A stretch of 64,000 bases of DNA from the sequence record NZ_CP029448.1; one strand, 5' to 3'. The position numbers and the translations under genes are program-made. The notes under the pieces are model-generated. The model was not told the origin of the DNA, did no database searches, and saw only the letters and a list, made by a program, of their open reading frames with translations. How positions within the stretch are numbered: position 1 is the first letter of the stretch; every line of letters starts with the position of its first letter. Of the stretch, positions 17,246 through 21,944 are shown piece by piece. Source of the stretch: a plasmid.

Positions 17246-17520
17246 AGTGTGCGCTCTCTTGCTTGGATGGCATTACGTTCTGGCCCAACGTTACTGTAGC
17301 GAATCCGCAGCAGTATCAATCAAAGCCTCCTGTATCCCGCGTGAAGAAAGACGCTACGTTGCGCCCGTTCTTCCACGGCTTCGCTTGCCGCCCCGCTACG
17401 GCAGATTCGAAGTATTCATCGAAATGTCATCCTTTAGAAGCAGTGCGGTAACAAGGAATTTCTATCCTTTGCATCGCGAACCGCAATTGTGCGGCCAGCA
17501 ATATTGCGAAAGGTGATCAA

Positions 17521-18348
17521 ATGATGCCCCATCCGATACAGGACGCCGTGCTGCGGGTCGACCGGTTGAGCGTCGTCTATCCAGGCGGCGTGACAGCCCT
17601 ACGCGATACCTCGATTGCATTTCGGCGTGGTGAGTTCACCGTGCTGCTTGGTCTCTCGGGCGCAGGCAAGTCGACCTTGCTCCGTAGTCTCAATCGACTC
17701 GTCACGCCCACTGGCGGCAGTGTCACCAGCGAACTCGGTGAGCTCGGCAGCGGCTCGGCCTTGCGTCAGCATCGTCGGCGTACCGCCATGATCTTTCAGC
17801 ACCACCAGCTAATCGAACGTCAAAGCGCACTGGCTAATGTGCTTACCGGTCGGCTGGCCTTTCACAACACGCTCCGCTCGCTGTTTCCTCTGCCGCGTGC
17901 CGATCAGGAGATTGCGCTCAGTTGCCTCGCTCGGGTCGGTCTGGCAGACAAGGCGCTAAGCCGGGTGGACAAACTGTCCGGTGGCCAGCAGCAGCGGGTA
18001 GGCATCGCGCGTGCGCTAGCGCAACAGCCGGCGATCATTCTGGCCGATGAGCCGGTAGCCAGTCTCGACCCGGCCACTTCGGTCCGTGTTCTCGGATTGC
18101 TGCGCGACATCTGCAAGGAAGACGGCATCACCGCCATCGTTTCGCTGCATCAACTCGAATATGCCCGCCGCTTCGCCGATCGCGTCGTCGGGCTGGCCGA
18201 TTCTCAGATCGTTTTCGATGCCGCGCCCTCGGAACTCACCGATGCGCAGCTTGAGCGCATCTATGCAGGCCGCTCTACGACTCAGCCAGCGAATGCTCCG
18301 GCTGAACCACCTGTCATGCTCGAACCTTCACTGGAGAAGTCCCGATGA
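17521..18348 (+). CDS. ptxA: phosphite/phosphonate ABC transporter ATP-binding protein PtxA
   Basis: Walker [10 protein letters not shown], signature LSGGQQQRV. First gene of a 5-gene operon ending in ptxD and ptxE. Confidence 0.8.
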
Positions 18349-19208
18349 AACGCTTATCCGCGCTCTTATTGACTTGCTTGCTGTCCGCTGTTTCAAGTTT
18401 GTCCGCCCTAGCGGCCGATGCCGATCCGGATGTGCTAAAGGTTGCCCTGCTGCCGGACGAAAACGCCTCCGAGCTGATCAAGCGTAACCAGCCGCTGAAG
18501 GATTATCTGGAAGAGCATCTGGACAAGAAGGTGCAGCTGATCGTAACCACCGACTATTCCTCGATGATTGAGGCGATGCGCTTTGGCCGTATCGACCTGG
18601 CGTATTTCGGTCCGCTGTCCTACGTCATGGCCAAAAGCAAAAGCGACATCGAGCCCTTCGCTGCCATGGTCATCGACGGCAAGCCGACCTATCGCTCGGT
18701 GATTATCGCCAATGTGGCGTCAGGCGTGAATGAGTATGCCGACCTTAAGGGCAAGAAGATGGCCTATGGTGACCGGGCATCGACGTCCAGCCATTTGATT
18801 CCCAAAACCGTGCTTCTTGAGACGGCCGGTTTGACGGGTGGGCAGGACTACGAACAATATTTTGTGGGCACGCATGACGCCGTTGCCGTCAACGTGGCGA
18901 ACGGCAACGCCGATGCGGGTGGGCTGTCGGAGGTAATTTTCAATCACGTAGCCGAACGTGGCCTAATCGATCCGAGCAAGGTGAAAGTACTTGGTTACAG
19001 CGGCGAATACCCCCAGTACCCCTGGGCGATGCGCTCGAACCTGAGCCCCGAGCTGAAAACCAAGGTGCGGGATGTATTCGTCGGTATCGACGATCCCGAA
19101 GTGCTGCGCAACTTCAAGGCCGAGGCCTTCGCGCCAATCACCGACGCCGACTACGATGTGATCCGCAAAATGGGATCGCTGCTCGGCCTCGACTTCGCCA
19201 CGATGTGA
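18345..19208 (+). CDS. ptxB: phosphite-binding periplasmic protein PtxB
   Basis: Signal peptide plus PhnD-like substrate-binding domain. 4-bp overlap with ptxA. Confidence 0.8.
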
Positions 19209-20044
19209 GCACCGATATGTCTACTCATTACGACGTGCAGGCGCTGCCTGCAGAGCAACGCGAGCACATCCTTCGAGGCTTCGGCCTCGGTTGGTGGCGC
19301 CAGCTGGGGCAGGTGGCGATTGTATTCGGAGTGGTGCTGTTGGCCTGCTGGTACGTGGGGCTGCTCGATGCCACCACGCTGCTGAACGGGCTGCCCTCCA
19401 TCGCGACCCTGGCAGGCGAGGCCATGCCGCCAGACTTTTCGGGCTATCGAAGCTGGATTCGCCCCTTGATCGACACCTTGGCGATGAGCATCGCCGGTAC
19501 GGCCATCGCAGTGGTGTTCTCGCTGGTGGTGGCCTTCGTTGCAGCGCGCAATACGGCGCCGCACCCCCTTGTGTTCGGTGTTGCCCGGGTGCTGCTCAAT
19601 GCCCTGCGGTCGGTGCCGGAGCTGATCATGGGCATCATCTTCGTTGCAGCCGTAGGGTTCGGCGCCTTGCCGGGCGTGCTTGCCCTGGGTCTGCATTCGG
19701 TCGGCATGGTCGGCAAGTTCTTCGCCGAGGCCATCGAGCACGTCGACGAAGCGCCGGTGGAAGCCGCTCGGGCGGCGGGGGCTACGCCGATGCAAGTGCT
19801 GCTGCACGCGGTTTTGCCACAGGTGACGCCGCAGTTCGCCGACGTGGCGATCTACCGCTGGGAATACAACTTTCGCGCCTCCACCGTGATGGGCATGGTT
19901 GGCGCCGGCGGTATCGGCTTCGAACTCATGGGCTCGCTGCGCATCATGCAGTACCAGGAGGTTGCAGCAATCCTGCTGGTCATCCTGGCCATGGTCACGC
20001 TAGTAGACGCCTTCAGTGGCGTGCTGCGCAAACGTTTCAAATAG
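19205..20044 (+). CDS. ptxC: phosphite ABC transporter permease PtxC
   Basis: PhnE-like permease. 4-bp overlap with ptxB. Confidence 0.8.
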
Positions 20045-20052
20045 GACAAACC

Positions 20053-21063
20053 ATGCTGCCGAAACTCGTTATAACTCACCGAGTACACGATGAGATCCTG
20101 CAACTGCTGGCGCCACATTGCGAGCTGATGACCAACCAGACCGACAGCACGCTGACGCGCGAGGAAATTCTGCGCCGCTGTCGCGATGCTCAGGCGATGA
20201 TGGCGTTCATGCCCGATCGGGTCGATGCAGACTTTCTTCAAGCCTGCCCTGAGCTGCGTGTAGTCGGCTGCGCGCTCAAGGGCTTCGACAATTTCGATGT
20301 GGACGCCTGTACTGCCCGCGGGGTCTGGCTGACCTTCGTGCCTGATCTGTTGACGGTCCCGACTGCCGAGCTGGCGATCGGACTGGCGGTGGGGCTGGGG
20401 CGGCATCTGCGGGCAGCAGATGCGTTCGTCCGCTCTGGCGAGTTCCAGGGCTGGCAACCACAGTTCTACGGCACGGGGCTGGATAACGCTACGGTCGGCA
20501 TCCTTGGCATGGGCGCCATCGGACTGGCCATGGCTGATCGCTTGCAGGGATGGGGCGCGACCCTGCAGTACCACGAGGCGAAGGCTCTGGATACACAAAC
20601 CGAGCAACGGCTCGGCCTGCGCCAGGTGGCGTGCAGCGAACTCTTCGCCAGCTCGGACTTCATCCTGCTGGCGCTTCCCTTGAATGCCGATACCCAGCAT
20701 CTGGTCAACGCCGAGCTGCTTGCCCTCGTACGGCCGGGCGCTCTGCTTGTAAACCCCTGTCGTGGTTCGGTAGTGGATGAAGCCGCCGTGCTCGCGGCGC
20801 TTGAGCGAGGCCAGCTCGGCGGGTATGCGGCGGATGTATTCGAAATGGAAGACTGGGCTCGCGCGGACCGGCCGCGGCTGATCGATCCTGCGCTGCTCGC
20901 GCATCCGAATACGCTGTTCACTCCGCACATAGGGTCGGCAGTGCGCGCGGTGCGCCTGGAGATTGAACGTTGTGCAGCGCAGAACATCATCCAGGTATTG
21001 GCAGGTGCGCGCCCAATCAACGCTGCGAACCGTCTGCCCAAGGCCGAGCCTGCCGCATGTTGA
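20053..21063 (+). CDS. ptxD: NAD-dependent phosphite dehydrogenase PtxD
   Basis: 336 aa, [43 protein letters not shown]..., D-2-hydroxyacid dehydrogenase fold. I recognise it as essentially the P. stutzeri WM88 PtxD sequence. Confidence 0.9.
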
Positions 21064-21926
21064 ATCCGGTCTGGCTGAAGAGCCTGGTAGCGATCGTTCA
21101 AACAGGCAGTTTTCAGAGCGCGGCGAGGGCGTTGGGGCTGGCCCAGCCGACGGTGTCGCAGCACTTGCAGAAGCTTGAAGAGCAGGTCGGCGTAACGCTG
21201 GTGCAGCGCAGTCGTAGCGGCTGCCAGCCTACCACACGGGCGCTGGCCTTCATGCCGCATGCGACCGCCTTGCTCGACATGCACGCCCGGGCGCTAGAAG
21301 CCCTGCATGGCAATCGTGAGCGCGTCGGGGCCAGCTCCAACATCGGCACCTACCTTCTCCAGCCATTCGTGCGCAACTATCTGACGACCGCAAATGAGAG
21401 GGGCGAGGTGGATCTGCGCATCGCCGCCAACCCGGATGTGGCCGACCAGCTACTGGCGGGCCAGCTCGACGCCGCGATCATGGAATGGTGGCTACCTCAC
21501 CCCGACTTCGAACACCGCCTCTGGCGGGTCGAGCCGCTGGTGCTTATCGTCAGCCCCGACCATGCGCTGGCTGAAGCAGGGTGCATAGAACGTGATCGTC
21601 TGGTGGACCTGCCGATGCTGGGAGGTGAACCGGGTAGCGGTACCGGACGGCTTCTGACCGAATACTTTGGCGAACTGGGCGTGCCTCGCAGCGGTATGCA
21701 GCTAGGCAGCACCGAGGCAGTCAAACAAGCAGTGAGGGCGGGACTCGGCGTGTCGTTGGTGATGGCTTCCGCAGTACAAGACGAAGTTCGCAGTGGCGCG
21801 CTGGTAGCTCTTCCCATCCCGGGGCTTGAAAAGCGTCTCCAACTGATCTGGCGCAAACCTCCCGGAAATCTGCACCCGCCGGGATTTGTGCGGCACTTAT
21901 TGGAGGAGGCAGATCTAGCTGGATAA
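21057..21926 (+). CDS. ptxE: LysR-family regulator PtxE
   Basis: [42 protein letters not shown]... is a LysR HTH. Overlaps the ptxD stop. Confidence 0.75.
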
Positions 21927-21944
21927 GGTGATGGATGGTTGCGA

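Follow-up and report, generated by a model that had tools for sequence, protein, structure and literature searches.

The 64,000-nucleotide stretch of plasmid record NZ_CP029448.1 that we analysed (the window, with positions counted from its first letter) carries a complete ptxABCDE gene set, very probably an intact operon for phosphite assimilation of the Pseudomonas (Stutzerimonas) stutzeri WM88 type, predicted to be expressed and to allow growth on phosphite in an enteric host. The five genes lie at 17521-21926 in the order A-B-C-D-E, all intact, on the plus strand and tightly packed:

17521-18348, plus strand: ptxA, ATP-binding cassette (ABC) transporter ATPase, 275 amino acids (aa); TIGR02315 PhnC, PF00005
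18345-19208, plus strand: ptxB, phosphite-binding protein of the periplasm, 287 aa including an N-terminal signal peptide
19205-20044, plus strand: ptxC, ABC transporter permease; 279 aa if translation starts at GTG 19205, 275 aa if it starts at ATG 19217
20053-21063, plus strand: ptxD, phosphite dehydrogenase dependent on nicotinamide adenine dinucleotide (NAD), 336 aa
21057-21926, plus strand: ptxE, LysR-family regulator, 289 aa; PF00126, PF03466

PtxD, which has the domains 2-Hacid_dh and 2-Hacid_dh_C, matches solved chains of the P. stutzeri phosphite dehydrogenase with E = 4e-216, and an exact-sequence look-up returned a UniRef name with the RepID PTXD_STUST. Only 15 differences separate it from the engineered PDB enzyme 9pr0 (D13E, M26I, V71I, E130K, Q132R, Q137R, I150F, Q215L, R275Q, L276Q, I313L, V315A, A319E, A325V and E332N), with the parent residue in the window at each, and these are 15 of the 16 thermostabilising substitutions published for the parent enzyme (PMC12676663); the sixteenth position, 336, falls outside the alignment. 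Because of that RepID, and because the differences from 9pr0 are engineered ones only, PtxD is, judged by its sequence, the same as the WM88 enzyme, beyond merely being of that type. A preliminary description of this DNA had called it essentially the P. stutzeri protein; comparison returned identity, and neither low similarity nor a generic family member was seen. This identity entails the presence of the catalytic and cofactor residues: M53, K76, G152/G154/G157, E175, A176, R237, E266 and H292 all stand at the expected positions. Among them, R237, E266, H292, K76 and M53 are the catalytic residues, and the GxGxxG NAD-binding motif and E175/A176 complete the list.

PtxB is 98% identical (259/264) to the crystallised PtxB of WM88 (PDB 5O2J), and it keeps all eight of the ligand-contacting residues named by Bisson et al. 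(PMC5700983), i.e. D16, Y49, Y94, S124, T125, S126, H155 and Y203, which include the STS-H motif S124/T125/S126/H155. The five substitutions, at chain positions 116, 140, 150, 180 and 253, all fall outside the ligand residues. For the P. stutzeri protein, Ps_PtxB, the reported dissociation constants (Kd) are 0.24 µM for phosphite, 40 µM for methylphosphonate and 160 µM for phosphate (PMC5700983). Hidden Markov models (HMMs) agree with the labels given to the components: PtxA scores 327 bits against TIGR02315 PhnC, an equivalog model (cut-off 266), PtxC 295 bits against TIGR01097 PhnE (cut-off 217), and PtxB 289 bits against TIGR01098, the phosphate/phosphite/phosphonate binding protein (cut-off 112), and PtxE combines a LysR helix-turn-helix (HTH) with a substrate-binding domain. 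Open reading frames (ORFs) and family matches thus agree on five co-directional genes for an ATPase, a binding protein, a permease, a dehydrogenase and a LysR protein, and gene order, HMM matches and the identities of PtxD and PtxB bear out their earlier naming as ptxABCDE.

Going by their identity to the characterised proteins, PtxB would bind phosphite in the periplasm and PtxD would convert phosphite and NAD+ to phosphate and NADH. Import of phosphite would be the task of PtxA and PtxC, powered by ATP, and PtxE, as a LysR-family protein, would play a part that is uncertain.

The operon is compact, and the 4-base-pair (bp) overlaps first ascribed to it hold for part of it. Genes A and B overlap by 4 bp (ATGA); B and C do so (GTGA) only if ptxC begins at its GTG, the ATG equivalent to 19217, which is the start used by the Prokaryotic Genome Annotation Pipeline (PGAP) in collinear plasmids, leaving an 8-bp gap instead. 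The remaining junctions depart from the description, C and D being separated by 8 bp and D and E overlapping by 7 bp (ATGTTGA). Its higher guanine-cytosine (GC) content stands: 17246-21965, which begins at the base directly after the right inverted repeat of the adjoining Tn3-family element, is the window's top-GC stretch of 4.7 kilobases (kb), at 0.611 vs 0.509 for the remaining window, a difference of ~10 points, though 23000-25600 and 44-49 kb also reach ~0.60-0.61.

Compared with ptxABCDE of P. stutzeri WM88 (PtxD, Swiss-Prot O69054, PTXD_STUST; PtxB, PDB 5O2J, 5O2K and 5O37), the window has the same five genes in one order, an identical PtxD and a PtxB in which the ligand residues are common to both. 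The two differ in the five PtxB substitutions and above all in setting: unlike in WM88, the module lies on a conjugative F-type enterobacterial plasmid, has no adjoining htx (hypophosphite) genes, and is flanked by remnants of the insertion sequence (IS) IS1384, a group II intron fragment and a Tn3-family transposon. Relatives of the block as a whole are found on Pseudomonas megaplasmids, where 17246-22342 is 99.8% identical at the DNA level (P. mandelii JR-1, P. putida pZXPA-20-602k and P. aeruginosa pNY5506-SIM), and on enterobacterial IncF plasmids (pBIC1a, KPNIH plasmids and Raoultella p602815-NR), which are 99.6-100% identical over the whole block; the protein accessions of PtxD, PtxC and PtxE are common to the Pseudomonas megaplasmids and the enteric p602815-NR. 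Acinetobacter plasmids of the pCl107 family also bear a five-gene ptx module with a predicted function alike, which is a distant relative, its PtxD being 53% and its PtxE 38% identical to those of P. stutzeri (PMC10117892). The likeness to the ptxABCDE operon predicted in the P. aeruginosa island PAGI-7 is one of description, taken only from a review (PMC12024412).

The identity to the megaplasmids, the IS1384-remnant flanks and the raised GC together make a pseudomonad origin of the ptx block well supported, as far as sequence can tell, which agrees with the horizontal, pseudomonad-like donor proposed at the outset. Once the Tn3-family transposon at its left junction is removed, the block is bracketed by two IS remnants, the left of which ends in an intron fragment:

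9222-9811, minus strand: left IS1384-family remnant, with the IS end at 9807 and CTAG at 9808-9811, encoding the N-terminal part of the transposase (PF05598)
21966-22342, plus strand: right IS1384-family remnant (IS5 group), with CTAG at 21966-21969 and the terminal inverted repeat from 21970, GGAAACTCTG...
9019-9221, minus strand: group II intron 5' fragment in the left IS1384 copy (Rfam RF02012, 122.7 bits, 9019-9167)

The remnants form a 378-bp inverted repeat of 97.9% identity, and in both the terminal repeat faces ptx and abuts CTAG. The intact IS1384-family element after ptxE in P. mandelii JR-1 matches the right one at 99.7% identity over the first ~400 bp of the element, and the left one is 98% identical to the intact IS1384 copy; PGAP names the full copies 'IS5-like element IS1384 family transposase', and we take IS1384 to be a Pseudomonas IS5-family element. 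The Pseudomonas megaplasmids share the position of IS1384 downstream of ptxE with the window, and, unlike in the window, the copies in the plasmid of P. mandelii JR-1 and in the P. putida plasmid pZXPA-20-602k are intact. Upstream, the IS of the P. mandelii and P. putida plasmids is diverged (82-91% identical), stands 117 bp further from ptxA and is split by a group II intron. The Pseudomonas sequence has a CTAG at the exact place of the IS end in the enteric lineage, a match that would fit a separate insertion of IS1384 at a usual IS5-type target, and these flanks lend support to a putative IS-mediated capture of the module.

In the window, two copies of one IS flank the cargo, as in a composite transposon. 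An intact transposase and intact outer IS ends are missing from the arrangement, and with the outer ends gone no target duplication outside it can be read. The left copy ends at about IS coordinate 612, where the intron fragment begins, and the right copy is cut at 377 bp; since both are truncated, the ptx module here is an IS relic that is not mobile by itself, and no active composite transposon. No named IS1384-ptx transposon was found in the searched literature.

The intron 5' end, GTGCG, directly adjoins IS sequence in the left remnant. We considered whether this was the intron of the Pseudomonas plasmids and rejected the idea: it is a different intron fragment, which starts ~11 bp further along the IS. 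The intron that splits the IS1384 copies in the Pseudomonas plasmids bears ltrA and differs from the window's fragment, and a plasmid assigned to Stenotrophomonas rhizophila (L005) has both introns nested, with the same junctions as the window plus the Pseudomonas-type intron. The right IS copy is truncated identically in that plasmid and in p602815-NR. Its cut, at 22343-22420, is made by the sequence TGTTGGCGCTGATGGAAAATTGACCCA...GAAATTTGACCCA, which, with a TGT terminus and a repeated motif, looks like a Tn7-like or Tn402-like end. An intact transposase gene of ISKpn26 (IS5-family) lies at 7305-8285, on the left side of the IS1384 and intron remnants and ~1 kb away from them, and likewise in p602815-NR. 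Tandem repeats in the left flank, suspected from duplicated BLAST rows, proved an artefact of two loci kept in one file.

The surrounding backbone is enterobacterial: 1-33009 of the window, including the RepB gene, is collinear with p602815-NR of Raoultella ornithinolytica, an IncFIB/IncFII conjugative plasmid, with two exceptions in 33 kb, a 297-bp indel and a 7.4-kb insertion. The segment absent from p602815-NR, 3367-3663, has an 8-bp direct repeat, TTTCTGAC, at its bounds, which suggests that the 297-bp difference is a deletion in p602815-NR, and less so an insertion here.

The 7.4-kb exception is the Tn3-family transposon, which sits exactly at the junction of the left IS1384 remnant and the ptx block:

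9815-17245, plus strand: Tn3-family transposon, 7431 bp
10013-12079, minus strand: HerA (PADLOC, 820 bits)
12076-13467, minus strand: SIR2 (PADLOC, 517 bits)
13475-14044, minus strand: resolvase (PF00239)
14204-17212, plus strand: tnpA (NF033527, 1123 bits)

It has the full set of Tn3-family features: terminal inverted repeats that begin with GGGG, at 9815 and 17245, a 5-bp target duplication, AGTGT, at 9810-9814 and 17246-17250, a Tn3-type transposase and a resolvase. Its cargo is a SIR2-HerA anti-phage defence pair. The element is missing from the otherwise collinear p602815-NR, and plasmids of Citrobacter, Enterobacter and Klebsiella contain it with 100% identity at places where the annotation under the match shows no ptx genes; its arrival is thus independent of the operon, as the preliminary description had it, and probably recent. 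None of the 30 best-scoring plasmids spans the Tn3-ptx junction, so that a SIR2-HerA transposon in this position seems to be rare or confined to this plasmid alone.

We posit the following order of events. The module would have arisen in pseudomonads, where it lies between two IS1384-family elements. One IS1384 copy would next have inserted at a CTAG 275 bp upstream of ptxA. It would then have reached F-type enterobacterial plasmids, on which both IS copies are now truncated, and the SIR2-HerA transposon would have inserted later at the left junction, leaving 275 bp of native upstream DNA.

A second stretch of high GC (0.611 over 23000-25600) lies downstream, at 23264-25532 on the minus strand. 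It encodes a DpdC-like protein (23264-23947, minus strand; PADLOC, 142 bits), a small HTH protein and a 432-aa protein in which an N-terminal RelB domain alone was found, and which PGAP calls a 'RelB/DinJ antitoxin' despite its length.

How widely is the operon shared? The exact block, 17246-21965, matches 628 of the 72,556 plasmids in PLSDB (~0.85%), with at least 80% coverage in 611 of these and at least 99% identity in 617. A wider query, which also took in 46 bp from the Tn3 element and 35 bp from the IS remnant, returned 875 records, an inflated number, and the exact-block count is used here. Klebsiella accounts for 575 of the matches, followed by Pseudomonas (15), Raoultella (13), Escherichia (10) and Enterobacter (5), and Citrobacter and Salmonella are also among the genera that carry the block. 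Of 5,426 complete genomes of E. coli, 7 carry it, plasmid-borne every time. The IS1384-CTAG-ptx junction, searched in PLSDB with a 125-bp query of 9750-9811 joined to 17248-17310, is common to 597 plasmids. In the main Klebsiella lineage the identity is 92.8% over this junction vs 99.6-99.7% across the operon, where 14-17 positions differ, and the differences therefore cluster near the junction.

The trait has also been noticed before: ptx genes are listed in the table of genes for pBIC1a, a KPC plasmid (PMC6286996), a ptx gene is mentioned on a Nepal outbreak plasmid (bioRxiv 10.1101/283291), and PtxD of K. pneumoniae KPNIH20 appears in published alignments. PGAP already applies the label "phosphonate dehydrogenase PtxD". 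Considering these counts and tables, the claim that phosphite utilisation is unusual on plasmids has to be given up; the operon is real but ordinary, already known, and a trait neither rare nor new on plasmids. Names vary between records: ptxD is entered as 'bifunctional glyoxylate/hydroxypyruvate reductase B' or 'hydroxyacid dehydrogenase', ptxE as CmpR or CbbR, ptxA as GlnQ, and ptxB and ptxC as 'phosphate-import' PhnD and PhnE.

The ptx operon reportedly belongs to the Pho regulon, as the title of the 2004 work by White and Metcalf puts it, and its transcription would be expected to be induced by phosphate starvation via PhoB. The region ahead of ptxA is the following:

17248-17520, plus strand: region upstream of ptxA, presumed promoter region, read from the sequence

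A 100-aa ORF at 17214-17516, whose start falls inside the inverted repeat of the Tn3 element and which lacks a Pfam match, was treated as spurious. A promoter scan found no sigma-70 consensus promoter upstream of ptxA, and the promoter and terminator scan returned nothing useful there or after ptxE. A Pho-box-like site, ATTCATCGAAATGTCAT, lies at 17414-17430, 91 bp before the ptxA ATG.

Several points weigh against function as predicted. The Pho-box-like pattern occurs 10 times in the window vs 5.7 expected, which makes the site no better than chance, and regulation could have been altered by the arrival of the Tn3 element 275 bp ahead of ptxA. On pBIC1a, a related KPC plasmid, the five genes reached only 2-5 reads per kilobase per million (RPKM) in E. 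coli TOP10 (PMC6286996), values that fit Pho repression and, equally, silent cargo. As for the proteins, the five substitutions relative to WM88 may affect the putative function of PtxB, and PtxD has no PtxD-specific HMM match in NCBIfam, its best match being a glyoxylate reductase below cut-off; the assignment of PtxD therefore rests on its identity to the characterised protein.

These points bear most directly on the possibility that the intact operon is a cryptic passenger of successful IncF plasmids, neither expressed nor selected for phosphite use in enterobacteria, which we judge improbable. The low RPKM on pBIC1a would suit such a passenger, but low expression is also what would be expected of a Pho-regulated operon if phosphate is not limiting, and Pho boxes and PhoB are conserved across pseudomonads and enterics. 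With both flanking IS copies truncated, the module spreads only with its plasmid, and as its copies are near-clonal, their intactness may mean recent spread and not selection; on the other hand, most of the block is kept in nearly all matching plasmids, and it persists across several genera. No phenotypic study, and no test of phosphite-dependent growth of enteric hosts with these plasmids, was found in the searched literature.

There is next to no probability that the genes are instead phnCDE, a phosphonate transporter of a generic kind, with an ordinary reductase of 2-hydroxyacids, glyoxylate or hydroxypyruvate beside it. Such a reading could draw on the record names (glyoxylate/hydroxypyruvate reductase B, hydroxyacid dehydrogenase, CmpR, GlnQ, phnCDE) and on the top NCBIfam match of PtxD, but this match, glyoxylate reductase NF009714, scores far under its cut-off (225 vs 455 bits), as does NF011938 GhrB (193 bits, cut-off 492), the phosphite pocket seen in the crystal structure is retained in PtxB, and the identity of PtxD to a biochemically characterised phosphite dehydrogenase refutes a generic 2-hydroxyacid dehydrogenase. 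Equally negligible is a laboratory artefact, i.e. an engineered construct or contamination, an idea invited by the 100% identity to the WM88 enzyme and by the wide use of its ptxD as a selectable marker in many papers, and rejected for a native operon of five genes with its upstream region in place of a cassette, flanks formed by IS1384 remnants and a piece of a group II intron, no adjoining vector sequence or synthetic codon-optimised borders, and an occurrence in 628 plasmids, with isolates of clinical, animal, wastewater and environmental origin, as well as in Pseudomonas megaplasmids.

The preferred reading thus remains an intact phosphite-assimilation operon of the WM88 type, predicted to work in its enteric host. 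Whether its near-clonal spread through ~0.85% of sequenced plasmids, largely clinical IncF, reflects real selection for phosphite assimilation is a separate matter, and one on which we are inclined to doubt, considering such selection possible but rather unlikely; the data do not separate it from hitch-hiking on successful plasmids. If it were true, hospitals, wastewater, animals or agriculture might supply the niche in which selection acts, one example being sites treated with phosphite fungicides or fertilisers.

The practical gain is chiefly one of annotation: the five genes are better named ptxABCDE than phnCDE with a "glyoxylate reductase", a "CmpR" and a "GlnQ", and the module serves as a marker of gene flow from Pseudomonas to IncF plasmids of the Klebsiella type. 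The widespread copy encodes the exact WM88 enzyme that biotechnology employs as a selectable or "bio-containment" marker. The presence of WM88-type PtxD on conjugative plasmids of common enterics is hence relevant to schemes that rely on phosphite as a private source of phosphorus.

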